From the NCBI GenBank assembly GCA_963729625.1, contig CAVSOU010000007.1, positions 480,001 to 544,000 of the forward strand: DNA of 64,000 nt. Direction: 5' to 3'. Of the stretch, positions 10,706 to 31,705 are shown piece after piece. The notes under the pieces were generated by a model that did not search any database, was not told the origin of the DNA, and saw nothing but the letters and a program-made list of their open reading frames with translations. The translations under genes and the position numbers were made by a program. Numbering within the stretch: position 1 is the first letter of the stretch; the number at the start of each line of letters is the position of its first letter. The stretch comes from an uncultured bacterium (GTDB taxonomy: Bacteria; Chloroflexota; UBA5177; JANWHV01).

Positions 10706-10879
10706 GAGGGATCGCCTTCCTGGTTCCGGCTTTGATACTACCTTCCAGGATGCGCGATCCCTCCGTATTGCGAGGCTCAACTGTCCAATCTACGCTAGCA
10801 CTTTGGCGCGGCCTATCGCATCGGACGCCAGGCGGATGGGCACCGGCGTTATGACCAGGCCTCAGGCAGTTGGTTGCAT

Positions 10880-12215: not shown

Positions 12216-15200
12216 GTGAGCAGCCTGGCACGGTTTGTCAGTGCGTGCCATCTGAGAAGCTCTGAGTGCCGATCGTGGCGACCAAGGCCGGCCATTCCGC
12301 TGGCCGTGCTCATGGTGGTGATGCAAACGCTGGTGCCGCTCGCGGCGACAGCGCCACAAACCGCGCACGCCGACGACACGCCCTGTGTCGTGTCCAGCCC
12401 TGCCGATGACGGCAGTATCGGGACCCTGCGCACGATCGTCGGCCTGGGCGTGTGTCCCGAGATTACCTTCGACACCGCGCAGATGGGTGCCGCCACGATC
12501 ACGCTTACCTCCGGCCCGATCCAAATTGGCACGGGCGACAGCTCAAATCTGCAGACGGTGGCGATAGACGGCGGCAGCGGCGTGACCATCCAGGGAGATG
12601 ACGTAGACTCGATCTTTACCGTCACGACCGGCGGTATTCTGACACTCAATAACCTGACTATTAGTGGCTCCGGCGATAGCGCCATCTGCAACAATGGCAC
12701 GCTAAACGTCGAAGGCTCCGTCCTCTCTGGCAACAGCGGTTTGAATGGCGGCGGCGCCATCTTCAACGACGGGTCCCTCGGCGCCGTCGCCACGCTCACC
12801 GATACGGCCATCACGAGCAACGCGGCGCCCATGGGCGGCGCCATTTACAATTATGGCGACGGGGGTACGGTCACGCTGACAATTGCCAACAGCACGCTGA
12901 GCGGCAACAGCACGTTCGGCGGCTCCGGCGGCGCTATCTCCGACGTCGGCGGTCCCGGCGGCGCCATCTACAACGATGGCGGCGCAGGCGCTGTGACTGT
13001 GGCAATTGCCAACAGCACGCTGAGCGGCAACAGCGCGAACTCCGGCGGCGGCATCTACAACGACGGCGACGGAGGCACGGTGAGTGTGACGATCGCCAAC
13101 AGCACGCTGAGCGGCAACAGCGCGCTCGTGGTCAGGCGGCACAGGATTCCGATTGTCGGCGCCGGCGACGGGCTCTACAACACGGCGGATGGTGGCGACG
13201 CGTCCCTGGCCGTGCACAGCAGCATCCTCGCCGACGGCGCGACCAACGAGTGCGCGGGCGACAGCTCGATCACCGACGACGGCTACGACCTCGCGCTTGG
13301 GACGACGGACGGCAACGGCTGCGCCCTGGACTCCGGCGACGAGGACGTGTCCACGGACGACCCGAGCTTCAGCGGCGGCGAACCCACGAATGGCGAGCTG
13401 GCCGATAATGGCGGAGCGACCCAGACCATCGCACTCGGTCCTGGGAGCATCGCCATCGGCAACGGCGACTGTCAGGCGTACACGGACTCGACGAGCGAAG
13501 ATGTGTATGCGGCCGTCACCACGGATCAGCGAGGGGCCGGATACCCGCGCAAGGATCCTTGCGACATCGGCGCCTTCGAGGCCGCCGGCGATGCGGTAAC
13601 GGCAACGGACACCCCGACGGCCACGGGCACAGCCACCTTGACTGATACCTACACACCGAGTGACACGGCTACGCTCACCGAGCCACCGAGCGACACCCCG
13701 ACGGACACGGCCACGGACACGGCCACCACGATCGATACCTCTACACCGAGTGACACGGCGACGGACACAGCCACGGTCACCGAGCCAGCGAGCGACACAC
13801 CGACCGCGGCCGATACATCCACGAACACGTACACGCCGAGTGACACGCCGACGGGCACGGCCACGGCGACCGATACCTCTACACCGAGTGACACCCCGGC
13901 GGACACGGCCACGGTCACCGAGCTACCGAGCGATACCAGTACGGCTTCCAATACACCGGCTCCCACCAACACAGCAAGCGACACCCCGACTGTCATCGGC
14001 ACGGCAGGCTATACCCCAGCAGCTACGGACACGCCAAGCAACACAGCGACGGATACCTACACGGCCAGTGCCACACCGAGCAACACGCCGACCGTCACCA
14101 ATACGCAGACAGATACGCCCACCAGCACGTACTCGCCAACAGCCATGCCGACCGATACCCACCCCCCAGCGGATACCTCGACGGGCACAGATACGGCGAG
14201 CGTGACCGCGGTCGCCACAGGCACAGCCAGTAGTACGCCGGTCCCGACAGACACGGCCACCGACACGCCCGCTGACACCAGCACAGCCAGCGACACGCCA
14301 ACCCCTACGGACACGGCGAGCGGTACGCCTTCGGCGACTCACGCGCCCACGAGCACGGTCACCGGCACGCCGACGGATACGGCTACGAGCACGCCGACGG
14401 CTACGGCTACCAGCACGAGGACGGAGATGGCGGTCGATCCGCCGGTCAATCTGCCCACGAGCGCGCCGTACGTGCTGTCATCGCCAACCGCGACTGGGGC
14501 GGCCGTGACCTCGAGCACGGCTACACCAGCCGACACCGGCTCCGCCCTTCCGCAGTTCACCAGTACGGCGATGCCAACGGCCACTGGCAGCAGCGCCTCC
14601 GCGGACGCGGCCACCGCCGTGCCACCCGTCCCCACCCCGGCAGGGCACGCCTCGGCGCTGGCAACGAACGGGACCATGCCCGCAACGTTCCAGGGTGGTC
14701 CGGCGATGGCCGCGGTACTGAGCGGCTCCACGCAGATCGCCCTGCGCGTCGCCTCGGATGCCGTGGCCCGCGGACAGACCCTCACCTTGAACGCATCGCT
14801 TGAGTCGTATGGCGGCTCATTGACAGGCAGCGTGACCTTCAAGGAGGGCAAGCTGGTGCTGGGCACCGCCAGCGTGCACGACGGAGTGGCCTTCCTGACG
14901 GTGACCATGCAGGCTGTCGGCCCCCACCATATCGTGGCCGTATATGACGGCCCGCACGGCTTGGTGGTAAGCACGACACCCCTCTCCATCACGGTCGGGC
15001 GCGCACCGAGTGCGCTGAGCGTCTGGAACCAGAAGCACACGGTAGTGGGCGGGCGCAAGAACGCCTGCCAAGCGCTCATGAGTGCCGGTATCCCCTCGCA
15101 GTCGGGCTGCGAGGCCGTCTTCAGCACCTGGCTGCCCGGGGCCAGGGTCACCGATACGCTCAGCTATGCCGACGGCACGCGCCAGACCTACACCGGCACC

Positions 15201-15374
15201 GCCGATGGCACGGGGCATCTACAGCACGCATTCGTGGTGAAGTACGAGCCCTCGCTCCACGCGAGGCACGGGGAGCCCGCTACCAGGGCCTGGATCAGTG
15301 TGGTGGCTACGAGCAAGGATGGTACCGAGACCAAGTCGGCCTGCCTGCGCTTCGCCGTGCTACCCAAGTTCTGA
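12216..15374 (+). CDS. Large secreted adhesin-like protein: GGAI beta-helix repeats, choice-of-anchor Q domain, Thr/Pro/Asp stalk, Ig-like domain
   Basis: GGAAGGA before GTG 12216; AHA signal site; repeated GGAIYN and IANSTLSGNS; LADNGGATQTIALGPGS...DQRG...CDIGAFE; long TDTP/TATP tract; GSVTFKEGKLVLGTASV Ig-like fold. Confidence 0.85.
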   Translation: MSSLARFVSACHLRSSECRSWRPRPAIPLAVLMVVMQTLVPLAATAPQTAHADDTPCVVSSPADDGSIGTLRTIVGLGVCPEITFDTAQMGAATITLTSGPIQIGTGDSSNLQTVAIDGGSGVTIQGDDVDSIFTVTTGGILTLNNLTISGSGDSAICNNGTLNVEGSVLSGNSGLNGGGAIFNDGSLGAVATLTDTAITSNAAPMGGAIYNYGDGGTVTLTIANSTLSGNSTFGGSGGAISDVGGPGGAIYNDGGAGAVTVAIANSTLSGNSANSGGGIYNDGDGGTVSVTIANSTLSGNSALVVRRHRIPIVGAGDGLYNTADGGDASLAVHSSILADGATNECAGDSSITDDGYDLALGTTDGNGCALDSGDEDVSTDDPSFSGGEPTNGELADNGGATQTIALGPGSIAIGNGDCQAYTDSTSEDVYAAVTTDQRGAGYPRKDPCDIGAFEAAGDAVTATDTPTATGTATLTDTYTPSDTATLTEPPSDTPTDTATDTATTIDTSTPSDTATDTATVTEPASDTPTAADTSTNTYTPSDTPTGTATATDTSTPSDTPADTATVTELPSDTSTASNTPAPTNTASDTPTVIGTAGYTPAATDTPSNTATDTYTASATPSNTPTVTNTQTDTPTSTYSPTAMPTDTHPPADTSTGTDTASVTAVATGTASSTPVPTDTATDTPADTSTASDTPTPTDTASGTPSATHAPTSTVTGTPTDTATSTPTATATSTRTEMAVDPPVNLPTSAPYVLSSPTATGAAVTSSTATPADTGSALPQFTSTAMPTATGSSASADAATAVPPVPTPAGHASALATNGTMPATFQGGPAMAAVLSGSTQIALRVASDAVARGQTLTLNASLESYGGSLTGSVTFKEGKLVLGTASVHDGVAFLTVTMQAVGPHHIVAVYDGPHGLVVSTTPLSITVGRAPSALSVWNQKHTVVGGRKNACQALMSAGIPSQSGCEAVFSTWLPGARVTDTLSYADGTRQTYTGTADGTGHLQHAFVVKYEPSLHARHGEPATRAWISVVATSKDGTETKSACLRFAVLPKF
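12885..13121 (+). repeat. Three identical 27-bp internal repeats (ANSTLSGNS) in the adhesin
   Basis: GCCAACAGCACGCTGAGCGGCAACAGC at 12885, 13008 and 13095. Confidence 0.9.
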
Positions 15375-16613: not shown

Positions 16614-19600
16614 TCAGCTACCCTCGGGCCGGAGCTCAACCGTCGGCCGGCTGAGCCACTCGACGAGCTGCTCCGCCGGTAGCGGAACAGACAGGTAGAA
16701 GCCCTGGGCGCTGTCTGCCCCCAGGCCGCAGAGCTGGGAGTAGGTGTCACCATCCTCCACCCCCTCGGTAACCACATCCATTCCCAGCGAGCGCGCCAAT
16801 CCAATGGTGGAGGCGACAATCGTCTGGTCGCCCACATGCCCTTTCATCCGCTGCACAAACGTGCGGTCGATCTTCAGCTCTGTCAGCGGCAAAACCGACA
16901 GGTAGGCCAGCGACGAGTATCCCGTGCCGAAGTCGTCGATTGCCAGCCGCACGCCCATGCCGGCGAGTCGTTCCAGGCTCGCTTTCGTGCCCTCCACGTC
17001 GGCCATCACCACGGTCTCCGTTACCTCCAGGGTCAGGCGTTGCGCCGGGACACCATGCTGTGCAAGCAGTCGCTCTACGGTCGCGCACAGGTCGGGGTCA
17101 CGCACGTCACAAATCGACAGGTTGACGGCAACTTGCAGGTGCCACCCCTTGGCCGCCCACACTGCCCACTGCCGCAGCGCCGTATCGAGCACCCACTTCG
17201 TCAATGGGATGATCACGCCCGTCTGCTCGGCCAGAGGGATGAACTCTTCAGGCAGCAGCAGGCCGAGGTGAGGGTGCTGCCAGCGCACGAGGGCTTCGAC
17301 GCCGTAGACCTGTCCGGACGCGAAGTCCGTCGTCGGCTGGTAATACAGGCGCAGCTCACCGTGCTCGACTGCGACCCGCAAGTCAGACGCCAGACCGTGA
17401 CGCCCCCGATCGTGCCCGTTGAAACTGGGGTCGTAGAGCGCATAGCCAAGCTGCCCGCGTTTGGCCGCGTACATGGCCACATCCGCACATCCGAGCAGCG
17501 TAGCGGCATCCCGGCCGTGTTCGGGATATACGGCAAGGCCCACGCTGGCGCCAATGGACAGCGGATGGCCTTCCACCACAAAGGGCGCCTGCATAGCGGC
17601 GTGGATCTGCTGGGCCACCACCTGCGCGCCCGCTCCGTCCGCCCGTGGCAGCACGATGGCGAACTCATCTCCGCCCAGCCGCGCCACAAAATCGCTCGCG
17701 CGTACGCTACCGCGCAGGCGGTCGGCAACCTGCCGCAGCAAGGCATCACCCATCTGGTGACCAAGAGTATCGTTGACCTCCTTGAAGCGGTCGAGGTCGA
17801 GACTGAGCATGCTCGCGCACCCGGCATCCTGGTCCGCGCCTACCATGGCGTGTTCCAGGCGATCGAGGAACGCGATGCGGTTCGGCAGACCGGTCAATGC
17901 ATCGTGCTGCGCCATATGGGCCAACCGCGTCTCCAGCTGCTGCTGGGCCGAAATGTCGGTCTGCGATCCCGCGATCCGCACGGGCTCTGATCCCTCGCGC
18001 ACCACGGCCCCGCGGCACAGCATCCACCGGTAGCTGCCATCGCGGTGTAGCAACCGGTACCGGTACTCGACTCGGTCGGAGCCTACCGCGATCTGCTGGG
18101 CGATGCCGCGTTCGAGCGCGCCACGGTCATCAGGATGGACCAGCTCAAACCAGCTGCCGGGTACGGCTTCGACCTCATCATCGGCAAACCCCGCCATCTC
18201 TTTCCACCGCGCCGAGTAGTAGACGCGGTTATCGCGCAAGTCCCAATCCCACAGGCCGTCGTTCGTCCCTTTTGTGGCCACCGCGTACCGCTCCTCGCTC
18301 ACACGGAACGACTGGAGCAGCTCGCGCTCCAGTGCCGCCATCAGCAGCACGGACCACTGCCAGACGGCGGCGGCGTCCGAAATCGTATGGCTCTCCACCG
18401 GGCTCAGAAGGGCCAGGGCGCCCCAGTCGCGGTCGGCCGTCTGCAGCGGCAGCACCATGGGCACATAGAGTGTGGCGTTCGGCGCGGTTCGCTCGACGAC
18501 GTCAAGCGGAGGGAACGACTCCGGGGGACAGCACGCGCCGGCCTGTACAGTCGACCCGAGGTCATGCGGGTAGACACCGGCGATGGTCAGCTCGCCCCCG
18601 GGGGTGTCGTGCTGCCAGAGCCCTAGGCATCCAGCCACGGCAGGCGTGTCGCGCAGCCACGCCAGATCACGCACGCTCGCTTTGCCCGGTTGCAGCATGG
18701 CGAGGCTGGTGTGGTAGTTCTGGTTCGAGCTGACCTGCGCGTCAACCATGCTCTCTACGAAGGGTAGGCGCGCGGCATACAGCAATTCGGTGCGCAGCTC
18801 GTACAGAACATCGTTGACGCGATCCGTCACATTGCTCGGATGGTTGCCGGCGCCCAGCACGGCCAGTACCGCCCGTTCGAGCAGAAAAATGGCACGATTC
18901 GCCGCCTCGACGCCGTGCGCGCAGGCGCACAGGTGCCGGCACGCCCCATTGAGTTCCCCTGGTAACGGCAGCGGCCCGCCATGCAGGGCAACCTCCAGGG
19001 CGGCAATGCAGCGGTCGATAGCCGCGGATGCCGCGCGAACACCCTTGGCGAACGCCTCGGGCGCGTCGCCGCACACTTCTCGTGCCAGGGCCTGCCGAAG
19101 CACCGTTGCCCAAGCCCCCTCTGTAGCGCTATCCGGCTGCCACGTTCGCTGCCTGACGCCGAACGAGGAGCACCCGCACGATTGCCGATAGACCGGCTCC
19201 GACGGCACAAACACACGCTCCGACGGTACGTGCTGGCCCGCCAGCATGGTCAATACCAACCTGGCGGCCTCCGCGCCGAGTGCCTCGTTGTCCTGGTGGA
19301 CGGTGGTCAAGGCCGGTGCTGCCATGGCGTTGAGCGCCAGGTCGTCGAAGCCGGTTATCGCGAGGTCGCCGGGTATCCGGTACCCCGCGTCCTGCATGCG
19401 CGCCATCAGGCCCAGCGCGTTCTGATCTGTGGCCGCGCAGACGGCTGTGCAGGTCATGCCGGTAGCGAGGAGTGCCTCCGCGGCAGCAAGACCGCCGGGC
19501 TCGTTCATGTCCGGTGCGTCGAAGCATAGCCCTGGATCGGGCTCGATGCCCACTTCCCGCAGCGCGCCCACGTACGCCGCAAAGCGGTCGCGGGTATCCT

Positions 19601-20180
19601 CAAACGCGAGGCACCCCACGAAACCGATACGCCGGTGCCCATGGTCCACCAGGTGCCGCACTATTGCCGCCATTCCCGTCCGGTTGTCAGGGAACACGGC
19701 AGGTATACCGAGGTCCTCGTAGCCGGCGCAAACGCTGACCAGCGGCTTGCCGGACTGTTTGAGACGCTGCAGCGTGCCGCGACCCACGGCGTCGAGCACC
19801 ACGACATACCCGTCCACGAGGTCGCGCGCGTAGGGCACGTACGCTCTCGCGTCGCCCGCCACGGGGACCTCGCGCCACTGAGGGAGCGCCTGGATGCCGA
19901 TGACGCGTCCCCCTGCGTGTTTCGCGGCCCGATGCAGGCCGGCAATAACGTTGCCGAAGAACTCATCGCCGAGGGCAGTGGCGATGATCCCGATGGTCGG
20001 TTGCCGGCGATCAGCGCGACCGCGCGTCACACGCGTGGTCGACGGTCGCACGGCTTCTGCCGATGCGGCCGCGGGTTCCGGGCTGTCGCGCCGGCTTCGT
20101 AGCGTCCCGCGAACCGGACGCGTGCTCACCGGCGACTCTCGCCGCGTAGTCCCAGCCCTACGATGGCGGTGTCTTGCCAC
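16614..20180 (-). CDS. LacI-type ligand-binding domain (no HTH)-linker-PAS-GGDEF-EAL protein
   Basis: HLVDHGHRRIGFV, PGDLAITGFDD, PALTTV, RQSCGC; DGLWDWD...HPDD PAS/PAC; HDALTGLPNR, RASD I-site, RLGGDEF; VEALVRW, DDFGTGYSSL. The start may be downstream (GTG 20129). Confidence 0.92.
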   Translation of the reverse strand: MARHRHRRAGTTRRESPVSTRPVRGTLRSRRDSPEPAAASAEAVRPSTTRVTRGRADRRQPTIGIIATALGDEFFGNVIAGLHRAAKHAGGRVIGIQALPQWREVPVAGDARAYVPYARDLVDGYVVVLDAVGRGTLQRLKQSGKPLVSVCAGYEDLGIPAVFPDNRTGMAAIVRHLVDHGHRRIGFVGCLAFEDTRDRFAAYVGALREVGIEPDPGLCFDAPDMNEPGGLAAAEALLATGMTCTAVCAATDQNALGLMARMQDAGYRIPGDLAITGFDDLALNAMAAPALTTVHQDNEALGAEAARLVLTMLAGQHVPSERVFVPSEPVYRQSCGCSSFGVRQRTWQPDSATEGAWATVLRQALAREVCGDAPEAFAKGVRAASAAIDRCIAALEVALHGGPLPLPGELNGACRHLCACAHGVEAANRAIFLLERAVLAVLGAGNHPSNVTDRVNDVLYELRTELLYAARLPFVESMVDAQVSSNQNYHTSLAMLQPGKASVRDLAWLRDTPAVAGCLGLWQHDTPGGELTIAGVYPHDLGSTVQAGACCPPESFPPLDVVERTAPNATLYVPMVLPLQTADRDWGALALLSPVESHTISDAAAVWQWSVLLMAALERELLQSFRVSEERYAVATKGTNDGLWDWDLRDNRVYYSARWKEMAGFADDEVEAVPGSWFELVHPDDRGALERGIAQQIAVGSDRVEYRYRLLHRDGSYRWMLCRGAVVREGSEPVRIAGSQTDISAQQQLETRLAHMAQHDALTGLPNRIAFLDRLEHAMVGADQDAGCASMLSLDLDRFKEVNDTLGHQMGDALLRQVADRLRGSVRASDFVARLGGDEFAIVLPRADGAGAQVVAQQIHAAMQAPFVVEGHPLSIGASVGLAVYPEHGRDAATLLGCADVAMYAAKRGQLGYALYDPSFNGHDRGRHGLASDLRVAVEHGELRLYYQPTTDFASGQVYGVEALVRWQHPHLGLLLPEEFIPLAEQTGVIIPLTKWVLDTALRQWAVWAAKGWHLQVAVNLSICDVRDPDLCATVERLLAQHGVPAQRLTLEVTETVVMADVEGTKASLERLAGMGVRLAIDDFGTGYSSLAYLSVLPLTELKIDRTFVQRMKGHVGDQTIVASTIGLARSLGMDVVTEGVEDGDTYSQLCGLGADSAQGFYLSVPLPAEQLVEWLSRPTVELRPEGS

Positions 20181-20832
20181 TCGGCGCCGCCGACCCGCAG
20201 AGCTCGCGCAGGTCCATAGCGGCTTCCGGCAGGAGGCCGTAACATGCCTCTCATCCCCTTAATTCGCGAAGACTCCTGATCGCGTCTACTTCTTGCAGCC
20301 TACACCAACAGGGTAGCCATGATCACTCCCCCAACAGGGTTGGCAGGTGGAGCGGCGTTATTGCGGACGCGATTGGTCGCCGCTGTGCCACGCGGGAGTT
20401 GAACCAACCACTCGCCGCGCTCTGGCCGATGTCCGGATCGCCTGCGTCTGACGGAGCCACAAGGTTGTGGAGGCATGCGCTGACGGTGGACCGTGCTGTG
20501 CGCCTTCACGCCACGTGGACGTCTGATCGGCCATTGGCCAAGAGGCCCTACGCCGGCAGCGAGGCTGCGGCTCCATGTCGCACGTTTGCAGACCCGCGAG
20601 GCGTCGCCAGACTGGCTAGCAAGAGCGGGCCACCTCGTTCGGGTGATGTGTCGGTCAGGCGTCACGCCTACTATTGGGTTGGAGCGCGGACGTATCGCTA
20701 AGGAAGTGCTCACAACGCCGGCGTGATGGCCATGCAGACGGTGGCTGCGTTCGCCGCGCTCGTCCGAGGAGGGATACAGGTAGAAAGCCAGAGAGGGAAC
20801 ACTGTCCCGGTCGCGATTTGTGTCAAGAGCAG

Positions 20833-20895
20833 GCCAACTGGGGCTCCGCCAACTGGGGCTCGGTAAATTGGGGTAGCGACTACTGAGGGAACTAA
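20833..20895 (+). pseudogene. Remnant of a second WGS-repeat tail (ANWGS ANWGS VNWGS DY*GN*)
   Basis: Matches the S8 tail (xxWGS)n-DYWG; the TGA at 20884-20886 sits where a Trp TGG is expected. No intact peptidase ORF lies upstream. Confidence 0.75.
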
Positions 20896-20925
20896 CCCCG
20901 GATCTCGATGAAAGGGAATGCATGT

Positions 20926-21444
20926 ATGAAGAAGACAATCTCGGGCCTCGTCCGCGGCACGGCATGTGCGGTAATCGTGGCAAGTGGCCTGGCGGGGTTG
21001 TGGCAGCACACGCCCGGCGCCCATGCCGCCGTGGCCAGCCGGCGTGACCCCATTCTGTTGATTTCCACGCCTACGGCGTCTGGTGCCACGCTGACTCTGG
21101 TTCAGGTCGTGGCCTCCATCTCCGCGAACAGCACGCAGGTGAAAGGTGTCAGCTTCGCCATCCACGGTCCAGTCGGTAGCTCGCTGACGAAAGAACTCTT
21201 GACCGGCGCGGGCGAAACTTACACGTACACGGCGGACCGCGTGGACACCTCCTACTCGACCGTGACCACCGTTACCGTGAGTGGGGCGGCCGTGCCGGTG
21301 ACCGTGACCTCCAGTGTCCTGGCAACCGATATGCAGACGGTGCTGTACCAGTCGACTGCCGTGGCTGGCATGAGTGGCAAGGGTATCACCACGACGGTAT
21401 GCCCGGTCGCCCTGGCCAATACCAATGCCGGCTGGGGGTCGTAG
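20926..21444 (+). CDS. Secreted beta-rich protein (RRDP motif) ending in NAGWGS
   Basis: Paralog of 10880-11404: GAHAAVASRRDPILL identical; AIHGP, ELLTGA and TDMxTVLYQ shared; signal peptide; AAAGGG before ATG 20926. Confidence 0.88.
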   Translation: MKKTISGLVRGTACAVIVASGLAGLWQHTPGAHAAVASRRDPILLISTPTASGATLTLVQVVASISANSTQVKGVSFAIHGPVGSSLTKELLTGAGETYTYTADRVDTSYSTVTTVTVSGAAVPVTVTSSVLATDMQTVLYQSTAVAGMSGKGITTTVCPVALANTNAGWGS

Positions 21445-21504
21445 GCAGCCCTCACAGCGGCCGTGCAATAGCAGGTAGTGAAGGTAATGAACGGAGAAAC
21501 AATC

Positions 21505-21687
21505 GTGAGTGGACAGAGGAAGAATCGATCGTTGCCGGTGCTCTGGCGCCGGATCGCCGTGTTGGCCCTGGTAATTCTTGGCACAGGCCTCTTCATCAGC
21601 CAGCCGGCACATGGCCTGGGCGGCACGAATACGGCAGCATGTGCGACATGTCACGTCGACAAGCCGTCCGCCGGCTGGGGGTCGTAG
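21505..21687 (+). CDS. Small secreted peptide precursor (~60 aa), predicted mature LGGTNTAACATCHVDKPSAGWGS
   Basis: GGAG before GTG 21505; basic n-region, hydrophobic h-region and AHG cleavage site; C-terminal AGWGS identical to the upstream gene; contains CxxCH. Confidence 0.72.
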   Translation: MSGQRKNRSLPVLWRRIAVLALVILGTGLFISQPAHGLGGTNTAACATCHVDKPSAGWGS

Positions 21688-21959
21688 GGGCCACAGCGAG
21701 CAGCTGCAATGGTTGGGTGCGCGGCTCCCGGCCGAAGCTGCGCTCGTGTACTGGACAGGCAACGCTCGGGGTGCGGCCTAGGCCGCACCCCGAGCGTTTG
21801 GGCTCGTGGTCAGACCGGCCGGCCGTGGCGCATCCGCTCTGGCCAGGGCCCGCGCAAATCCTGAACGCCTGGCAGATGGCTCGCCGACATCCTGTGAGCA
21901 CATGGGCCACCGGTACCGGATACTTCCGGGGCGTTTCGCACTCGAGGGTAGTAGTTGCT

Positions 21960-22030
21960 TTGCACGAGCTTGGTGGCAACTGCAGCGACCGGGTAACTCT
22001 CGGAGCCATCGGCTCACTGGGTGGTCGTAG
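21960..22030 (+). pseudogene. Possible decayed copy of the small WGS peptide gene
   Basis: HELGGN resembles HGLGGT; in another frame EPSAHW resembles KPSAGW; CTGGGTGGTCGTAGG is one inserted base away from CTGGGGGTCGTAGG (WGS*). Confidence 0.45.
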
Positions 22031-22181
22031 GCGCCACACCGCGCGGCTGCGCCGGTTGGGGGAGCGACTGCCGGTCGCAGCAGTGCTAGTGTACTGAATA
22101 GGAAATGCTCGGATCGCGGTGTACGCCGCGTCCCAGCCATGAGTTCTCCCGGGTGTTCGGAACGAGGTCGGACGAGCAGCC

Positions 22182-24989
22182 ATGTCACTACGTGCCCGGG
22201 CCTATGTCGGCAGCGTGCTTGGCGCCAGTGTCGCGCTGAGCGTGCTCGCGCTGCTTCGCTTCGCCCCAACGCTCGCGCTGTGTGAGACCTTTGCCGCCTT
22301 GACCGTCCTGGCCAGCGTGGCCCAGCTGTTCAAGGCCGAAGCCCCCAACCACGTGCTGCTCTACGCCAGCCCCATCTTCTTCTTTGCCGGTGTCCTGCTG
22401 CTGCCGCCCTTCCTGTTCGTTCTGTTGGTGGCTGTTCCGCACATGGTCGAGTGGGGTGTCGAGCGATTGCGGCACAGTCCTCACCTCCGTGCCTGGTACT
22501 TGCAGCCGTTCAATATCGCAATGAACTGGATATCCGGGCTGAGCGCGTACTGGCTGTACGCGCAGGTCAGTGGTGAGAACACCGCCAGCGTGCTTTCGAC
22601 CACCGTGCTCGCGGGTCTGGCCGCCGTTGCCTGCTTCGTCGTCCTCAACCACATCCTGCTGGGGCTGGCCCTCGCCCTCGCGCGTGGCGTGAGCTGGCGC
22701 GAGTCGGGCATGTTCGAGCTGTGGAGCCTGCTCACCGACCTGGTGCTGGCCTGCATGGGCCTGGTCGTGGCGGAACTCTGGCGGATACATCCCGCGTTCG
22801 TCGTGCCGGCCCTCGCTCCCCTGGTATTGATGTACCAGTCCCTGATGATCCCACGGTTGAAGCAGCAAGCCGAGATCGACGCCAAGACCGGTCTGTTCAA
22901 CTCCGGGCATTTCAAGACCATGTTTGGCGCCGAGCTGGCCCGGGCCACGCGGTTTGATCGGCCGCTCACGGTGATCATGGCCGACCTGGACCTGCTGCGT
23001 AACGTCAACAATCAGTACGGCCATCTCGCCGGTGACGTTGTTCTCGCCGGGATCGGCAAAATCATCCGTCAGACGATGCGCGAGTACGATATCAGCGGCC
23101 GATTCGGCGGTGAAGAATTCGTCCTGGTTGCCCCTGAAGCAGGTCTTACAACGGGCGAAAGCCTGGCAGAGCGACTGCGGCAGGCGGTAGCCGATGCTCG
23201 TTTTCCGATCGGGGCAGACGCCGCGCCGATCGGCGTGACGATGAGCCTGGGAGTAGCGTGCCACCCCCTGGACGGGAACACCGCGGAAACGTTGATCTAT
23301 GCAGCGGATATGGCGGTCCTCGAAGCCAAGACCAGGGGACGCAACTGCGTGGTGCGCGCCGCGGACCTGTCATGGGACCGCCGCGTCGCTCAGCCGGCCC
23401 CGCCTGAGCCCGATGCGGCCTCCGCCGGCGCCGTGACGCCGCAGCGATCGTCGCTGCAAGCAGAGGGGCCTCAGATACCGCCCGTCAGGCTCCTTGCGCC
23501 TGAAAGCCTGCGGAGCGCCTCTCCTCCCGAGACAGCCGAGCCAGCGTATCCAGGGACAAAGGCTCTGCCCCTGCGCGCAGGCTGGCTCGGCCAGGGCGCG
23601 GAACGCGATGGCGCGGATCGCGATCTGCCGGTGAGCAGCCAACGCGCGACGCAGGCGCCACCGCGTCTCGCGCGAATGCTTCCCCAGCCTGGGGTGGCCG
23701 TGGCCACGATGCTGCTGGCCATTGGCACAGTGCTTGCGGGGGTGCGGTACGAGGACATCTCGCTGGGATTGCAGCCCTTCGGCGAGATCCTCACGGCCGT
23801 ACTCCTGGCCGCCACACTCGTTCTGACTTACCGGTATCCGATTCATATCCGCCTGCACCTCAAGGTGCAGGTGTCTACGATGGTCTACTACCTGGTGGCC
23901 GCGCTGCTGCCCCTATCGTTGGGCATGGGTGTTGCGGCGCTGGGCACCCTGCTGGGCGAAGTATCCGTGCGCCGGCAGCGCAAGCTCTACCCGAGCGATA
24001 TTGCCACGGCCGTCGGCCGATGGACGGTGTTGGTGTTTCTGGGCACCTTGGTAGCACATGTGCCCGCACAAGGAGATGTCGCCCTGGCGCCGTTGGCGGC
24101 CTGCGCGGTGGTGCTGGCAATGGGCGACCTCCTCACGTTGCCGCTGATCATCGCATCGATAACCGGTGAGCGCCCGCTTCGCGTGCTGCGCGCGCTGGCC
24201 ACGGACACCGCCGTGCCAGATGGCATCCAGTACTTGCTTGGCTTCCTGGCGATTCTCGCATCCCAGCGCGCGGCGTGGGTACTGGTTCTCTGTGCGGTGC
24301 CTGCCGTTCTCGTTTACCAGGCCACGAAAGCCATGCATGAGGTGCAGGACTCCACGCACCATCTCCTGGAGGGCATGGCCGACACGGTAGACCTCCGCGA
24401 TTCCTACACCGGGGGTCATTCGCGGCGCGTGGCGGACTTCTGCCGCCGCATCCTGGATGAACTGGATCTCATGGGCCCCGATGCCGAGATGATCGTCTCG
24501 GCCGCGCGCGTGCATGATATCGGCAAAATCGCCATTCCCGACGCGATCCTCATGAAGCCGGGGCCCCTGACGGGCGAGGAGCGCGCCCAGATGCAGACGC
24601 ACGCGGAGCGTGGCGCCGAGGTGCTGGCCCGCCATCGAGATTTCCGGCATGGCGTGGCTGTTGTGCTGCACCACCACGAGGCGTGGGACGGCAGTGGGTA
24701 TCCGCGCGGGCTCAAAGGGCTCGCAATCCCGTTCGGAGCACGGTTGATGGCCGTAGCGGACGCCTTCGACGCTATGACAAGCGACCGGCCGTATCGCGGC
24801 GCGATGTCAGCAGCAAAGGCGGCAAGTATCTTGCGGCAGGGACGGGGTCTGCAGTGGGATCCTCAAATGGTCGATGCGCTGTTGCGCTGCATCGATGTTC
24901 AAACCGTGCTGGCCGAGCTCGCGGTGCTGCCGAGCCCCGACTGCACGACAGCCCAACGCCCCTCCAGCACGTCCGCGGCAGGCGCTTGA
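22182..24989 (+). CDS. Membrane-sensor diguanylate cyclase/phosphodiesterase: TM block-GGDEF-TM block-HD-GYP
   Basis: N-terminal ~400 aa closely paralogous to 4595-8017 (QLFKAEAPNH, YASPIFFFAG, WYLQPFN, ARGVSWRESG); REYD I-site, RFGGEEF; YTGGHS, VHDIGK, HHEAWDGSGYP, DAFDAMTSDRPY. Confidence 0.93.
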   Translation: MSLRARAYVGSVLGASVALSVLALLRFAPTLALCETFAALTVLASVAQLFKAEAPNHVLLYASPIFFFAGVLLLPPFLFVLLVAVPHMVEWGVERLRHSPHLRAWYLQPFNIAMNWISGLSAYWLYAQVSGENTASVLSTTVLAGLAAVACFVVLNHILLGLALALARGVSWRESGMFELWSLLTDLVLACMGLVVAELWRIHPAFVVPALAPLVLMYQSLMIPRLKQQAEIDAKTGLFNSGHFKTMFGAELARATRFDRPLTVIMADLDLLRNVNNQYGHLAGDVVLAGIGKIIRQTMREYDISGRFGGEEFVLVAPEAGLTTGESLAERLRQAVADARFPIGADAAPIGVTMSLGVACHPLDGNTAETLIYAADMAVLEAKTRGRNCVVRAADLSWDRRVAQPAPPEPDAASAGAVTPQRSSLQAEGPQIPPVRLLAPESLRSASPPETAEPAYPGTKALPLRAGWLGQGAERDGADRDLPVSSQRATQAPPRLARMLPQPGVAVATMLLAIGTVLAGVRYEDISLGLQPFGEILTAVLLAATLVLTYRYPIHIRLHLKVQVSTMVYYLVAALLPLSLGMGVAALGTLLGEVSVRRQRKLYPSDIATAVGRWTVLVFLGTLVAHVPAQGDVALAPLAACAVVLAMGDLLTLPLIIASITGERPLRVLRALATDTAVPDGIQYLLGFLAILASQRAAWVLVLCAVPAVLVYQATKAMHEVQDSTHHLLEGMADTVDLRDSYTGGHSRRVADFCRRILDELDLMGPDAEMIVSAARVHDIGKIAIPDAILMKPGPLTGEERAQMQTHAERGAEVLARHRDFRHGVAVVLHHHEAWDGSGYPRGLKGLAIPFGARLMAVADAFDAMTSDRPYRGAMSAAKAASILRQGRGLQWDPQMVDALLRCIDVQTVLAELAVLPSPDCTTAQRPSSTSAAGA

Positions 24990-25151: not shown

Positions 25152-27188
25152 ATGGCGACTGAATCGCCCTTCCGCGAGCGTAGCCAACCTCAAGCCGGCG
25201 GCACGTCCGTGCCCGCAAACGGGCGCGACGCGGCGCGACGCACCGCGCGAAGCCGCCGTGCCGAATCGTTCCGCGCTGAACCGGCGACGGACACGTCGCG
25301 CGTCGCCAGCAGCAAGCTTGGCGAGCTGCTGGTCGCGAACGGGAGTGCCACGAGCGACGGCGTGGAAGCGGGCCTGGACGAGCAGCGTCGCACCGGCGTG
25401 CGCCTCGGCGAGGCACTGGTGAGCCTCGGCTACGCCCGTGCCGATCGGGTGGCCCAGGCACTTGCCGCGCAATACGGTCTCGAGGCGCTCAGTTCACTCG
25501 AGTCATCCAGCGAGCGACCCACGTGCTGCACCACCGACGACACCTGGTACCAAACGCACCGCCTCGTTCCACTGTCTGTCAGCAATGGCATATTGCGCGT
25601 GGCTACCGCGGATCCGACGAATACCGCCTTGCTGGCTGAGGCCGCGCGCATTGCCGGGATGCCAGTTCAACCGATCGTGGCCACGAACCGCGACATCGAG
25701 CGGGCGCTTAACTCGCTGTTCGGTCTGCCGGACCTGTATAAGAGCGCCAACGACCTGCTTGAGCGCATGCCGGAAGACAGCGCGTATCAGGTGCTCAGCC
25801 GCGCCCAGAAGACCGCCATCCTCGGCGCACTCGTCGTCTGTCTGGCGGCGCTCCTGCTGGATACAACGGCCACCCTGATCGTGCTCATTACCCTGTTGAC
25901 CCTTCTGCACCTGGCTTCCTGTTTCTACAAGCTGTACCTGCTCAGCCAGGGCGTGAAAGCGGGGGAGACGATCTATTCCGCACCCGAAACCGCGCATCTG
26001 GACGATCGCACGCTTCCTGTCTACACGATCCTCGTCCCGCTGTACCGTGAAGCGGTCATGTTGCCGCAATTGCTCCAGGCACTGCAAGCCCTCGACTGGC
26101 CGAAAGCAAAGCTGGATGTGCGCTTGCTCCTGGAGCAAGATGACGTCCCCACCATCGACGCGGCATTCGCCGCGCGATTACCGGCCTATTTCACGTTTGT
26201 CATCGTGCCGCCCGGATTGCCGCGGGGCAAGCCCAAAGCATGCAATTTTGGCCTTGCCCACGCAAGGGGCAAGTACGTCGTGATTTTCGACGCGGAGGAT
26301 ATTCCGGAGCCCGACCAGCTCAAGAAGGTTTACGCGGCGTTCCAGCAGGCGCCGGCAGACCTCGGCTGCATTCAGTGCCATTTGAACTTCTACAACGCCG
26401 ACCAGAATCTGCTCACCCGGTGGTTCACGGCCGAGTATTCGGTGTGGTTCGACATCCTCCTGCCCAGTGTGCAGGCCGCGCGGGTGCCGGTGCCTCTCGG
26501 AGGAACATCGAACCATTTCAAACGCGATGTGCTCGAGCAGCTCGGGGCGTGGGATCCCTATAACGTGACCGAGGACGCCGACCTGGGAGTGCGCCTCTTC
26601 AAGCGAGGTTACCGCACCGCCGTCTTGACGTCGACGACCTACGAAGAGGCGAATCCGCGCGTCGGCAACTGGCTGCGGCAGCGTTCGCGCTGGATCAAGG
26701 GCTATCTTCAGACCTGGCTGGTGCACATGCGTCACCCGATTGTTCTGTGGCGGGAGCTTGGCCCGCGCGGTTTCCTGGGCATTCAGTTTCTCCTTGGCGG
26801 TACTGTGCTGGTGCTTCTGCTCAATCCACTCTTCTGGGCCCTGGTGCCTCTATGGTTCACCACGCGATCGGCGCTGCTGCTGCAGCTCTTCCCTGGTCCC
26901 GTCTTTTACCTGGGCGCCGCCGCCCTCTACGTCGGCAATATCCTGTTCATTTATCTTGCCATGGCGGGGTCGCTCGGACGCGGATACCATTCCCTCACCA
27001 AGTACGCGCTCCTCAGCCCGGTCTATTGGGTGCTCATGAGCATCGCAGCCTGGAAAGGCGCCCTGCAGCTGCTGAGCCGGCCACACTACTGGGAGAAGAC
27101 GAAGCATGGCCTTGCGCGCTACGCGGTGGTGCCAGCGGCCCTTCCGCCAGACGCGGCAGTGATACACAAGAAGTCGGGGACCCCGTGA
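25152..27188 (+). CDS. MshEN (c-di-GMP-binding) domain + processive GT2 glycosyltransferase
   Basis: KLGELLVANG...LDEQ followed by RLGEALVSLG...ALAAQ; GT2 motifs LVPLYRE, FDAED, TEDADLG, QRSRW; C-terminal TMs and WEKTKHG. Confidence 0.9.
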   Translation: MATESPFRERSQPQAGGTSVPANGRDAARRTARSRRAESFRAEPATDTSRVASSKLGELLVANGSATSDGVEAGLDEQRRTGVRLGEALVSLGYARADRVAQALAAQYGLEALSSLESSSERPTCCTTDDTWYQTHRLVPLSVSNGILRVATADPTNTALLAEAARIAGMPVQPIVATNRDIERALNSLFGLPDLYKSANDLLERMPEDSAYQVLSRAQKTAILGALVVCLAALLLDTTATLIVLITLLTLLHLASCFYKLYLLSQGVKAGETIYSAPETAHLDDRTLPVYTILVPLYREAVMLPQLLQALQALDWPKAKLDVRLLLEQDDVPTIDAAFAARLPAYFTFVIVPPGLPRGKPKACNFGLAHARGKYVVIFDAEDIPEPDQLKKVYAAFQQAPADLGCIQCHLNFYNADQNLLTRWFTAEYSVWFDILLPSVQAARVPVPLGGTSNHFKRDVLEQLGAWDPYNVTEDADLGVRLFKRGYRTAVLTSTTYEEANPRVGNWLRQRSRWIKGYLQTWLVHMRHPIVLWRELGPRGFLGIQFLLGGTVLVLLLNPLFWALVPLWFTTRSALLLQLFPGPVFYLGAAALYVGNILFIYLAMAGSLGRGYHSLTKYALLSPVYWVLMSIAAWKGALQLLSRPHYWEKTKHGLARYAVVPAALPPDAAVIHKKSGTP

Positions 27189-27303: not shown

Positions 27304-28944
27304 TTGGCGTTCGTGTTCTACCTCTTGGTCGCCCTCTATCTTCGCCGGCTAGACCTGTACATGCAAGACGCGGTTGCTCGCACGGCCCAGGCCTTCTCCG
27401 TCCTCTACTCGCGCGACCCGCACCTTGGCGCGCTGGGCTTCGTGTGGAACCCGCTGCCGGCCTTGCTGCAACTGCCCTTAATCACCGTTCTGCATACGGT
27501 TCGCCTCGACCCGTTGCTGGCGAGCAATATACTGACCGCGGGCTGCGGTGCGGCGGCCCTGTGCGTGTTGAACGCTTTCATGCTCCGCGCAGGACTCTCC
27601 TCCCGCCTGCGTTTGCTGCTCCTCGCTCTCTATGGCCTCAATCCAGTCATCGTGCTGTATAGCGCCAACGGGGAGAGCGAGGCGCTCTTCATCCTGCTGA
27701 TCGTGAGTCTGGTCACGAATTTCGTCGAATGGGCGGATACACGGTCCCTGCGCGCCCTGCTGTCCATGACGCTCATCTCCGCGCTGGCAGTGCAGGCCCG
27801 CTACGAATCGCTCGCACTGATCGCAGCGGTCGCAGCGGCGATCATCCTCACCTGTATGCCCCTCACCCGGCACATCGGCGTCTCGGCTGCCGCCCGGCGG
27901 ATGGAGAGCTACTCGATTGCGTACCTGGCCGCCCCAGTTTATTCCTGCGCGATCTGGGTCTTCTTCAACTGGATGATCGAGGGGGACGCCCTGTTCTTCC
28001 TGCGCAGCGCGTACAGCAATATCGCGGATACCGCTCAGTTCAGGTCGAATGCTGGAAGCTACCTCCATGGAGTGGTCTACTCCTGGCCGGGCGCATTCCG
28101 GTACGGCGCCCGCGAAATGCTCTGCATCTTCCCCGCGTTTGCCGTGATCCTGCTGCTCGCGTTGTTCCTGGCCATGGCACGGCGTGAGCGAGGGATTTCG
28201 TTGTTCGGTGTTCTACTGATTTCCCTGGCAATCCCTGGGTTCGAGATCGCGATGATCGAGCGGGGCGCTTCTTACGGCTGGCTCCGTTTCTTCATATATG
28301 TGATTCCTTTCTCGTTCCTGCTGCTCACCGTGCTCTGCCGGACAGTTCCCAGCTTGATTGGGGGGCGAGGCGCCAAACTCGTCTGGGTGCTGATTGTTTT
28401 CGCGCTGCTCAGCTCGGACGTTGCGAGCTGGATCGCCATGAATACGCCCTCCCTCGGTCGCGAAGAACGATACGTCACCTGCAAGATCTTGCACCCAGGC
28501 CGGATATCCAGCCACGACACGATTCGCGACCCCAAGGCGATCGATGCCGTGGTCCAATCTCTGCCGCCGGGCCGCGTCCTGCTCGATACCTACCAGGGTT
28601 TCGCCATCCCACTCGTTTCTCCCAATCCGACACGCTACGTGATAACCTCGGACCTTGACTTCTCGGCAATACTGCACCATCCCGCGGGTATGGTGCGCTA
28701 TATCCTCGTCCCTTACCCCGACGCGGTTGGCCTTGACGATAGTATCAACCAGCAGTATCCCAATCTGTGGGAACGCGGCAGCCCCTGGACGCGCTTGCTC
28801 CGCGACTTTCCGCAGACCTTCAATCATTGGAGACTCTACGCGGTGGTCGGCGTCCCTCCCACGGGGGCGCGCGACCGGCAACCTGCCCGTACGCAACCCC
28901 TGCCCGCCAGGAATACAACACCAGAACAGTGTGAGAATGGGTAG
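27304..28944 (+). CDS. Multi-TM GT-C fold (PMT/GT39-like) glycosyltransferase-like membrane protein
   Basis: About 10 hydrophobic segments; DAVAR, RDPHLGALGFVWNPLP, NGESEA and RYE motifs; C-terminal soluble domain. Start codon uncertain. Confidence 0.7.
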   Translation: MAFVFYLLVALYLRRLDLYMQDAVARTAQAFSVLYSRDPHLGALGFVWNPLPALLQLPLITVLHTVRLDPLLASNILTAGCGAAALCVLNAFMLRAGLSSRLRLLLLALYGLNPVIVLYSANGESEALFILLIVSLVTNFVEWADTRSLRALLSMTLISALAVQARYESLALIAAVAAAIILTCMPLTRHIGVSAAARRMESYSIAYLAAPVYSCAIWVFFNWMIEGDALFFLRSAYSNIADTAQFRSNAGSYLHGVVYSWPGAFRYGAREMLCIFPAFAVILLLALFLAMARRERGISLFGVLLISLAIPGFEIAMIERGASYGWLRFFIYVIPFSFLLLTVLCRTVPSLIGGRGAKLVWVLIVFALLSSDVASWIAMNTPSLGREERYVTCKILHPGRISSHDTIRDPKAIDAVVQSLPPGRVLLDTYQGFAIPLVSPNPTRYVITSDLDFSAILHHPAGMVRYILVPYPDAVGLDDSINQQYPNLWERGSPWTRLLRDFPQTFNHWRLYAVVGVPPTGARDRQPARTQPLPARNTTPEQCENG

Positions 28945-29062: not shown

Positions 29063-31705
29063 ATGCAGAACACTATGCATGCAGCCAATTCGCCCCGCCA
29101 GCCACGCATCGGCGTGCTCAGTCCCTTCTTGGGCGACGAGTTCTTCGGCAATACACTGCTGGGCATTAACCGTGCCGCGCGGCAGGAGGGTAGTTGCGCG
29201 CTCGGGATCCAGACTCGGCCCCAATGGTGGCGCAATCATGAAACGACAGGCGCTGACTGCGGCCCCTTCATCCCCTATGCCATTGACCACGTCGACGCGG
29301 TCATCAGCATCACGGATGCTGCAACCGCCGACGACTTGCGGCAGCTACAGCTTTCTGGAAAACCGATAGTCACGATCTGCACCTTCTTGCCCGAGCTTGG
29401 CATTCCGGCAGTCTTCCCCGACAACCACTCCGGCATCTCCGCGGTCGTTCGTCACCTCATCGAACATGGCCATACGCGCATCGGTTTTGTCGGGTACATG
29501 CCCAATGATGACGTGCGGGAACGGTGGGAAGCCTATGTGGCCACACTGCGGAAGGCCGGTATTGAGCCCGATCCAAATCTTTGCTTTGAGGCTTCCGACT
29601 TGATTGAATCAGGTGGGGTCGTCGCCGCGAAAGCCCTGCTCGCCGCTGGGGTGCCCTGCACCGCACTCTGCGTCAGCACCGACCAGAATGCCCTCACGAT
29701 CATCTCGTGCATGCAGGAAGCGGGCTACAGGGTGCCGGAGGATCTGGCGGTTGTGGCGTTCGATGACGTGCAGGTCAGCGCGACCAGCGTGCCGTCGCTT
29801 ACCACCGTACATCAGTCCAATATTGAGATCGGTGCAGTGGCAGCCAGAATGGCGCTGGCACGACTGGCCGGTACGGATATCCCGCCTCGGAAGTATCTCG
29901 TTTCCTCCCAACCGGTTTTCAGGCAGTCGTGCGGCTGCTGGACTTTTGCCAGCGCGACGTCTCTCGCAATCGACAACAGCGATCGCATCCGCCACCGCAT
30001 CGAAGCGCTGCAGCATGCCCTGGTCGCCGAAGCGCTCCCGATCGCGGGCGAAGAGACAGTTGGCTATCCAGATGCGCCGCGTGCAGCTGCTGCGAGAATC
30101 GGGAGGGCACTTGCCAGAGTGGTGGCTGGCGGGCCTCTGCCCGCGCCGGGAGCGCTGAACAAGGCCTGGCGCGATATCTGCGCTGCCGGCACAAGCATTG
30201 AAGCTGTAAGCCGCGCGTTCGGTGTCTTGCAACGCGGTACCCAGGCTGTTCTCGAAACCGAACCCCACGACGCCTCCGCGCCGCTTCGGGTCCGGGAGTT
30301 CCTGGATGAGATGCGGACAGAGCTCCTGTACGCCGCGCGCCATCAATTTGTCGGGCGCGCCCTCGATCTAGAAACGATAAACGATCGAAACCACCAAACA
30401 AGCCTGCGACTGCTCGCGCCCGGCGACGGCAGCGCGCGCGACCTTGCCTGGCTCGCGGAAACGCTGGCTTCCGCGGGGTGCCTCGGCATCTGGCGCGACG
30501 ACGTGGTCGGCTCCGAGCTGATCATCTCCGGCATATTTCGACAAGGCAAAAGTGGGCTTGAGCGAATTGGCGATATCTGTAGCCCGACGGCATTTCCCCC
30601 TCTCGACGTGCTCGAGCCTGCGATGCGGGACAACCCGAACCAGATGATCATGATCGTGCCACTGCAAACCACCGACCACGATTGGGGCGCCCTGGCACTG
30701 CTGAGTCCGCCTGAGATTCAGGTGCTAACGGCCGACTCCGGGGTGTGGCAATGGACAGCTCCACTGATGGCCGCGCTCGCTCGCGAACGGCTGACACGGG
30801 AGCGTGAGCGCCTCATGCAACTCCTCGAGGAAAGCGAACGGCGGCGCACGCGCATGGAGCTCGAGCGCGAGCGTACAGAGAAGGACGTATACAGGTCGGC
30901 CGCGCTCCGCCTGGAGGACCTGAACCACCAGCTTGCGGAAACGAATCGTTTGAAATCAGAGCTGCTGGAACAATCCCAGACACAGGCCGCGGCAGCGCAG
31001 GATCTGGCCAGACTTCGCAGCGACTTCGTGGCCACGGTGAGTCACGAGCTCCGCACGCCACTTACGGCGATCGTCGGCTACGCGGAGCTGCTGCAGTCCC
31101 ATTGGGCGCAGCTTACGGACGAGGAGCGGCTTGAGCGGATCGATCGCATAGTCGCGTCGGCAAATCGCCAGCAACGACTGGTCGAAGACCTGTTGATCCT
31201 GAGTCGACTGGAGATCGGAGCCCTGGCGCCCAAAGTCAGGACTATACTGCTTGGCAGTCTGATCGAGCGCGCTGCGGACGAAGTGCGCTCAAGTTACCAT
31301 GGCCAGCAGATAGCCGTCGAAGGTCCCTCCTGGCTCCAGGTGCAGGCCGATCCTGACCGCTCCGTGCAGGTGCTCGTAAATATCATGGACAACGCCGCAA
31401 AGTACTCGCCGGAAGGCTCGCCCGTCCACATTCGCTTCGTGAAAGAAGGGGACACGGCCATTGTCCTCGTTCGGGACGAGGGCGCAGGTATTTCCGTCGA
31501 AGGGCGTGAACTCTTGTTCACTCGATTCGGCCGTGCAAGTGGCAGCCGGACGCGCGCCGGGCGTGTCGGCACCGGATTGGGCCTGCACCTCAGCCGGAGC
31601 CTTGCTCAAGCCATGGGCGGAGACCTCCGGCTCGAGTCGACCGGCCCCTCGGGGAGCGTGTTTCGCCTGACGCTGCCCCTGGCAGAGGACCGCCAGCCTG
31701 AGTAA
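29063..31705 (+). CDS. LacI-type ligand-binding domain-linker-histidine kinase
   Basis: N-terminal ~580 aa paralogous to 16614-20180; H-box SHELRTPL, N-box NIMDNAAKYS, DEGAG, GTGLGL; no TM segments. Confidence 0.92.
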   Translation: MQNTMHAANSPRQPRIGVLSPFLGDEFFGNTLLGINRAARQEGSCALGIQTRPQWWRNHETTGADCGPFIPYAIDHVDAVISITDAATADDLRQLQLSGKPIVTICTFLPELGIPAVFPDNHSGISAVVRHLIEHGHTRIGFVGYMPNDDVRERWEAYVATLRKAGIEPDPNLCFEASDLIESGGVVAAKALLAAGVPCTALCVSTDQNALTIISCMQEAGYRVPEDLAVVAFDDVQVSATSVPSLTTVHQSNIEIGAVAARMALARLAGTDIPPRKYLVSSQPVFRQSCGCWTFASATSLAIDNSDRIRHRIEALQHALVAEALPIAGEETVGYPDAPRAAAARIGRALARVVAGGPLPAPGALNKAWRDICAAGTSIEAVSRAFGVLQRGTQAVLETEPHDASAPLRVREFLDEMRTELLYAARHQFVGRALDLETINDRNHQTSLRLLAPGDGSARDLAWLAETLASAGCLGIWRDDVVGSELIISGIFRQGKSGLERIGDICSPTAFPPLDVLEPAMRDNPNQMIMIVPLQTTDHDWGALALLSPPEIQVLTADSGVWQWTAPLMAALARERLTRERERLMQLLEESERRRTRMELERERTEKDVYRSAALRLEDLNHQLAETNRLKSELLEQSQTQAAAAQDLARLRSDFVATVSHELRTPLTAIVGYAELLQSHWAQLTDEERLERIDRIVASANRQQRLVEDLLILSRLEIGALAPKVRTILLGSLIERAADEVRSSYHGQQIAVEGPSWLQVQADPDRSVQVLVNIMDNAAKYSPEGSPVHIRFVKEGDTAIVLVRDEGAGISVEGRELLFTRFGRASGSRTRAGRVGTGLGLHLSRSLAQAMGGDLRLESTGPSGSVFRLTLPLAEDRQPE

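Follow-up and report, generated by a model that had tools for sequence, protein, structure and literature searches.

The window, that is the whole 64,000-nucleotide stretch of DNA that was analysed (G+C 61-69%), carries on its forward strand a 60-codon open reading frame at 21505..21687, called pep60 here. It begins with a GTG start codon at 21505, ends with a TAG stop codon at 21685-21687 and is preceded on the same strand by a ribosome-binding site, GGAG, read from the sequence at 21493..21496, 8 nt 5' of the start. Residues 1-37 (21505..21615) resemble a signal peptide, in which five Arg/Lys residues are followed by an uncharged hydrophobic stretch and then by A-H-G, the putative cleavage site. 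The predicted exported part comprises the 23 residues encoded at 21616..21684. According to the translation, it contains the motif C-A-T-C-H (21640..21654) and ends in the tail P-S-A-G-W-G-S (21664..21684). The initial annotation had described a 23-residue mature part with C-A-T-C-H and a WGS end, and the translation of pep60 reproduces it exactly. The 5' neighbour of pep60, P0002 (20926..21444, + strand), codes for a 172-aa secreted beta-sandwich protein that ends in N-A-G-W-G-S. At its 3' end, pep60 runs into a module, defined by alignment and folding and named Module B (21662..21800, + strand), which combines the tail codons with two hairpins, one long and one terminator-like. The latter is a perfect 19-bp inverted repeat without spacer (I1, 21761..21798, + strand).

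Export of pep60 is predicted by a simple filter of our own and not by a trained predictor. The filter asks for a basic n-region, 14 uncharged hydrophobic residues and small residues at positions -3 and -1, and pep60 was the only one of the 271 window ORFs of 45-90 aa with such a signal-peptide-like N-terminus. Coding potential was evaluated with a codon-usage score for which 22 window genes with Pfam support served as the training set. At +0.097 bits per codon, the frame of pep60 outscored the five other frames and ranked 23rd among the 271 small ORFs; this is modest support by comparison with real genes, at about 0.33 bits per codon. The exported part alone scored -0.056 bits per codon. GC3 was 0.74 in pep60, against 0.78-0.79 in the neighbouring genes. 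It had also been suggested that the ORF is small enough to be missed by gene callers. Apparently this is what happened in the genome of the window, because P0002 and P0003, its larger neighbours on the same contig, are present in the protein collection while the window's own copy of pep60 is absent. In another genome it was called, and the collection holds that annotated 60-aa orthologue.

P0003 (10880..11404, - strand) is a 174-aa paralogue of P0002 that ends in N-A-N-W-G-S. P0002 carries a signal peptide, and its AlphaFold2 model is an all-beta sandwich with a mean pLDDT of 87, in which the tail (residues 161-172) is flexible, with a pLDDT of 65-69. In a Foldseek search against PDB no fold reached E <= 0.001, the lowest E being 0.073. 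Both proteins belong to an unnamed family for which neither Pfam nor NCBIfam has a model. In a profile search against 1.84 billion representatives, 191 proteins were recovered at E <= 1e-3 and 8 at 1e-10. Family members have about 150 aa and show a signal peptide followed by a conserved C-R-x-D-P motif, which reads S-R-R-D-P in the window members P0002 and P0003. A scan of a genome collection with the P0002 subfamily alignment produced 126 pattern matches, none of which was confirmed.

The end of pep60 and the end of the P0002 gene are identical over 19 nt (21670..21688 and 21427-21445, family D3). This shared stretch includes the TAG stop codon and the next base. The 19-mer has two exact matches in comparison with 0.06 expected, and two matches were obtained in none of 100 shuffles. 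In the window, 3 of the 1,445 stop-to-stop ORFs with 20 or more aa have endings of the form [ANSG][ANGVS]WG[SL], while 32,119 such ORFs from 1.38 Mb of unrelated loci include none. The WGS terminus of pep60 is far beyond chance. In the P0002 subfamily the tail follows the consensus [PN]-[SN]-A-x-W-G-[SL], and pep60 agrees with it at all seven positions. Relatives from other sources end in the tail as well, namely P0005 (46% identity, ending N-A-N-W-G-S), P0006 (38%, P-S-A-A-W-G-L) and P0008 (34%, P-N-A-V-W-G-S). Since it is kept in relatives that are only 34-46% identical, the tail is a motif of the subfamily at the protein level. WGS endings were found in 5 of the 152 collected proteins: P0001 (an orthologue of pep60), P0002, P0003, P0005 and P0008. 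A literature search with the tail strings gave, among the matches listed, only unrelated items such as software names.

Outside these last 19 nt, pep60 resembles neither P0002 nor P0003, whether the DNA is compared with codon shuffles or the protein with shuffled proteins. We considered that pep60 could be a truncated P0002 paralogue with its core deleted, and discarded the idea for this lack of similarity. The P0002 subfamily profile gave pep60 3.3 bits, a score exceeded by 20 of 500 tail-preserving shuffles, and a profile of 150 family sequences gave 4.7 bits, aligned to the signal-peptide region only. The family has a conserved mature N-terminus and a beta-sandwich core, whereas pep60 has neither, the two being alike only in the last 5-7 residues and in the 3' untranslated module. 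As the identity spans the stop codon and the next base and there is no homology to P0002 or P0003 elsewhere in pep60, the tail appears to have arrived as DNA. Judging from the sequence, it is the sharing of this tail between pep60 and P0002, which the initial annotation had not noted, and not the CxxCH motif, that we take as the real structure of the locus.

DNA similarity between the tail-bearing copies continues past the stop codon. Positions 21662-21795 align with 22004-22137 at about 75%, forming a 135-nt unit whose decayed second copy, Module C (22004..22143, + strand), was delimited by alignment and scored 159 bits in a covariance-model search. Module C is a decayed tail. After E-P-S-A-H-W its reading frame is lost to one extra T in a G-run, and the DNA 5' of it has several stops and no ORF with a start codon or signal peptide. 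Module C also adjoins the next gene, ending 39 nt 5' of the start of a GGDEF/HD-GYP gene, and it could act on the 5' leader of that gene.

Another trace of the tail lies upstream of P0002, at 20833..20886 (D7, + strand), where three tandem 15-nt units encode A-N-W-G-S, A-N-W-G-S and V-N-W-G-S, followed by D-Y and a stop. The units are located 40-90 nt 5' of the P0002 start and have TCC, TCG and AGC as their Ser codons, which agrees with a motif kept at the protein level. The first unit and the final 15 coding nt of P0003 have the same sequence. Upstream of the units, neither a usable start nor a signal peptide nor homology to the P0002 family was detected. The ending of this remnant resembles the G-G-S-D-N end of P0007, another relative. 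A family pseudogene 5' of the repeats was also considered and rejected, as tblastn with ten proteins (eight members of the P0002 family and two pep60 orthologue records) places the family only at 20926-21441 and 10883-11404. The stretch 20833-20886 is probably the decayed 3' end of another P0002-family gene, and it may also be a DNA or RNA site before P0002. The locus thus shows one intact family gene (P0002), pep60 and two remnants, all with the same tail.

Module B folds with -88.4 kcal/mol (z -3.2), and in its long hairpin the tail codons pair with downstream bases. The 135-nt module matched no Rfam family above the gathering score; the only Rfam match in 19500-23000 at E <= 1 was a microRNA model placed on the hairpin, with 24.3 bits against 70. 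That the module could be a dispersed repeat or mobile element was discarded, since the covariance model finds only copies B and C in the window, the next match being the palindromic hairpin itself as it appears on the opposite strand. Scans of 20000-22400 for consensus promoters and terminators returned none of either. The hairpin at 21761-21798 was not called by the terminator scan because its T-run is too short. We read it as the terminator of a transcript that would cover both P0002 and pep60. The two genes lie on the same strand, 60 nt apart, and no notable hairpin is found between them (z -0.04).

The module copies bear directly on the main rival to our favoured view. Module duplication could have put the tail and the stop codon behind a chance open hydrophobic stretch, and pep60 would then be a young by-product ORF with no function, the conserved entity being the module as DNA or RNA. 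We hold this to be possible, although somewhat doubtful. The existence of two copies agrees with it, and so does their consensus of 39 predicted pairs, 6 of which stay paired although both bases have changed (slid controls show none). However, these pair counts are partly circular because the two copies themselves served to derive the RNA structure, and Module C, when folded by itself, is no more stable than shuffles (z -0.62). Neither Module C nor the 20833-20886 remnant has a usable ORF, and the codon score of the pep60 exported part is negative, as could be expected for a by-product; pep60, on the other hand, has a well-placed GGAG, the sole signal-peptide-like N-terminus among the 271 small ORFs and the best codon score of the six frames.

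Orthologues of pep60 speak to the same question. Only two were found in the collections searched, P0001 (95% identical) and P0153 (91%), and such confinement to very close relatives would suit a by-product. P0001, retrieved by a word-indexed search, has 60 aa with the same start position and is encoded on a 1.39-Mb contig of an NCBI/ENA genome. P0153, retrieved in a search for longer forms, is 91% identical over 90% of the query and lies on a 3,362-bp ENA contig. Leaving out V1M at the GTG start, the two records add up to seven substitutions, at residues 3, 5 and 16 and at residues 6, 8, 23 and 24, all in the signal region and none in the exported part. The two that affect the hydrophobic core are conservative (V to L, I to V). 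The exported part is unchanged in P0001, and in P0153 it is unchanged up to a frameshift right after V-D-K-P; the frame shifts again about 25 nt further on, both times beside single-base runs. P0004, the orthologue of P0002 on the same 3,362-bp ENA contig, is likewise frame-shifted. The frameshifts of P0153 and P0004 could come either from sequencing error or a low-quality assembly, or from decay of the whole locus in that strain. That pep60 is intact in two of the three records, and that the indels of the third lie beside base runs and thereby suggest read errors, speaks against a by-product. Nevertheless, in the P0153 record the 70 nt of non-coding DNA (23 codons) 3' of the stop also translate identically. 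Since this DNA and the peptide are conserved to the same degree, what keeps the exported part unchanged may be conservation at the nucleotide or RNA level. Purifying selection on pep60 is not demonstrable, given that no relative beyond 91% identity was found. Finally, P0002 is alone in its 90%-identity cluster, which means that the P0001 genome contributes no close annotated P0002, and this weakens the idea of an obligate P0002-pep60 pair.

The CxxCH motif occurs 7 times in the 127,996 six-frame residues of the window, one of these occurrences lying in frame within a cytoplasmic glycosyltransferase gene. From this frequency, about one chance case is expected among the small ORFs of the window, while the chance expectation for pep60 itself is only about 0.003. 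The caution, already expressed in the initial annotation, that a single CxxCH may be due to chance was well placed, and by itself the motif is unremarkable in a 64-kb scan. In pep60 it sits in the predicted exported part, as is the case in c-type cytochromes. A haem c mini-peptide could result if, after export, the cytochrome c synthase joined haem to C46 and C49 and H50 served as its ligand, giving a 23-residue microperoxidase-like molecule whose distal site would be open or weakly ligated. We consider this unlikely. Profile searches do point towards haem sites: the first haem site of CCP_MauG, the only Pfam match, gave 15.6 bits (E 0.026, cut-off 25.6), the NCBIfam model of NrfH gave 14.6 bits (E 0.026, cut-off 134.2), a MauG-like NCBIfam model gave E 0.089 and, among PDB sequences, cytochrome c-552 gave E 1.4. 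But no Pfam match reached E <= 0.01, no cytochrome c family profile of Pfam or NCBIfam was above its curated threshold, and matches of this kind below the cut-offs are expected for any sequence that, as pep60, was picked for its CxxCH. ESM Atlas neighbours of pep60 include NrfB-like and c7 clusters at 0.82-0.84; these scores, at most 0.88 for pep60 and 0.76 for P0002, are leads only.

A second axial ligand, Met or His, is usual in c-type cytochromes, although not universal. The 23-residue exported part of pep60 has no Met, and no His besides that of the CxxCH. The scan against Pfam covered 105 window ORFs (12, 17 and 76), and none of them is a cytochrome c, a maturation gene (Ccm/Ccs) or a haem gene. 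The neighbours of pep60 are c-di-GMP genes, not redox genes, and its tail is common to P0002-type proteins that contain no CxxCH. Comparison of the motif between orthologues is limited to those 95% and 91% identical, no divergent one having been found, and its conservation is uninformative because there are only these two and their exported part is unchanged. In favour of a haem peptide, one report describes that a purified bacterial System II synthase, CcsBA, attaches haem in vitro to CXXCH peptides of 9, 11, 16 and 20 residues, and that attachment needs only both thiols and the His (PMC8112865). Peptides in this 9-20-residue range are comparable to the exported part of pep60 in carrying a CxxCH. 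Haem attachment to pep60 is chemically possible but unsupported by the data above, and we would not expect it. The literature searched, which is far from exhaustive, contained no naturally encoded haem peptide of this size. A more elaborate proposal is that pep60 is a haem c peptide sent by its P-S-A-x-W-G-S tail to the extracellular destination of the beta-sandwich proteins, where it would add a redox-active or peroxide-reactive group; we find it rather improbable. If true, a natural haem peptide would matter much more than the acquisition of a tail, the case for it being the motif itself. The CxxCH of pep60 is a possible haem or disulfide site and not what defines the locus.

The genomic surroundings were also inspected. 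The window holds a dense set of c-di-GMP genes, at 4595-8017 (-), 16614-20180 (-), 22182-24989 (+), 25152-27188 (+), 29063-31705 (+) and 32405-33265 (-), which looks like a regulated exopolysaccharide locus. Two of its products are GGDEF-EAL proteins, and one of these is fused to a PAS domain and to a LacI-type sugar-binding domain that recurs in a histidine kinase of the set. The others are a GGDEF/HD-GYP protein of the membrane, a GT2 glycosyltransferase that bears an MshEN domain, and a PilZ protein. The GT2/MshEN gene is immediately followed by a 546-aa ORF (27304-28944, +) that is gene-like, with 0.325 bits per codon, and has no Pfam domain. The best relative of the GT2/MshEN protein belongs to a Chloroflexi MAG (51% over most of the protein), and the nearest relatives are Chloroflexota MAGs. 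A genome-collection scan with this neighbour retrieved 80 loci, none of them with a P0002-family member or a tail-bearing ORF. Two STAND-type NTPase regulators, at 102-2603 (+) and 2911-4473 (-), consist of one NB-ARC protein with TPR and one HTH protein with AAA/NACHT-like domains. P0003 is flanked by an S8 subtilase gene (8277-9857, -) and by the gene of a 1,100-aa Big_3_5 protein (12072-15374, +), and either product could belong with the P0002 secreted family. Downstream of P0003 lie DDE transposase fragments (9857-10780, -). A stop codon separates the one at 9857-10348, which matches DDE_Tnp_1 with E 3.8e-07, from the ORF before it, and we consider these fragments an insertion-sequence remnant.

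These surroundings are relevant to whether pep60 could be a Phr-like signalling pro-peptide, that is, a precursor cut down in the extracellular space to its last five to seven residues, which would then serve as a signal. The xNWGS repeats upstream of P0002 would then represent a decayed multi-copy precursor. The size of pep60, its signal peptide and its conserved C-terminal pentapeptide would match the layout of Phr precursors, the S8 subtilase gene lies two genes from P0003, and the locus is found amid c-di-GMP signalling genes. Yet the same tail is present on folded 170-aa proteins, unlike such precursors, and the xNWGS repeat lacks a start codon followed by a signal peptide. The genes that flank pep60 encode P0002, without any Pfam domain, on the upstream side and the GGDEF/HD-GYP membrane protein on the downstream side; there is no adjacent TPR receptor gene, the NB-ARC/TPR proteins being about 17 kb away. 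We regard a Phr-like function as very unlikely. Regarding other peptide pathways, none of the 105 scanned window ORFs is a RiPP maturase (radical SAM, P450, YcaO, lanthionine synthetase or similar).

The explanation that we favour, with roughly even confidence, is that pep60 is a genuine exported mini-protein restricted to its lineage. It would be co-transcribed with P0002, would owe its tail to a copied 3' module and would probably share the fate of the family tail. This explanation builds directly on the ORF with its ribosome site and signal-like N-terminus, on the 19 nt in common with P0002, on the copies of the module and on the occurrence of the tail in distant relatives. From these observations we infer that pep60 is translated and cleaved, that it is co-transcribed with P0002 and that its tail has any role. 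According to this explanation, the 3' module (tail codons, hairpin and terminator-like hairpin) would have come from the P0002 gene family and would have been copied locally at least twice, and pep60 would have acquired its P-S-A-G-W-G-S together with this module. P0002 and pep60 would be transcribed as a two-gene unit ending at the hairpin 21761-21798. Sec would export the pep60 precursor, and cleavage behind A-H-G would give the 23-residue peptide; if uncut, the precursor would stay anchored. Because pep60 shares the tail, whatever reads the free C-terminus of P0002 and P0003 could be expected to handle pep60 as well. We hypothesize that this putative reader is a factor that binds the C-terminus, for example a processing protease or an anchoring factor, at which pep60 might be a co-substrate or a competitor of P0002 and P0003. 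Tails decay at this locus, as can be seen from Module C and from the remnant upstream of P0002, and pep60 could be the next.

If pep60 is made, it would offer a clean case of a small exported protein that gains a functional end from the 3' module of its neighbour, with tail codons, stop codon and terminator copied together. More generally, the free C-terminus P/N-[SN]-A-x-W-G-[SL] marks a few exported proteins in a poorly sampled lineage, and it is a candidate recognition tag.

pep60 can be compared with several known systems. Microperoxidases and engineered CXXCH peptides are, as the predicted exported part of pep60 is, short peptides with one CxxCH. They are, however, proteolytic or engineered products, while pep60 is naturally encoded and has a tail unrelated to haem. 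An E. coli route to artificial microperoxidases based on Ccm has reportedly been described. Cytochromes of the NrfH/NapC and CCP/MauG types share with pep60 a hydrophobic N-terminus and a C-A-x-C-H within about 10 residues, and it is there that the weak profile matches fall. Unlike these cytochromes, pep60 stops 10 residues after the motif, with no remainder of such a gene following. Phr-type pro-peptides of Bacillus resemble pep60 in their size of about 40-60 residues, in having a Sec signal peptide and in a short C-terminal part that is conserved. Phr genes differ in having an adjacent TPR receptor gene, which pep60 does not, and the tail of pep60 is also found on folded proteins. As for sorting signals, the LPXTG, PEP-CTERM and GlyGly-CTERM tags have a membrane helix and a basic cluster after the motif, and no sortase-like gene was found among the 105 window ORFs scanned. 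In contrast to these tags, the tail of pep60 and P0002 is a free C-terminus, with nothing after the Ser. What it has in common with them is to be a short C-terminal motif present in otherwise unrelated exported proteins of one organism.
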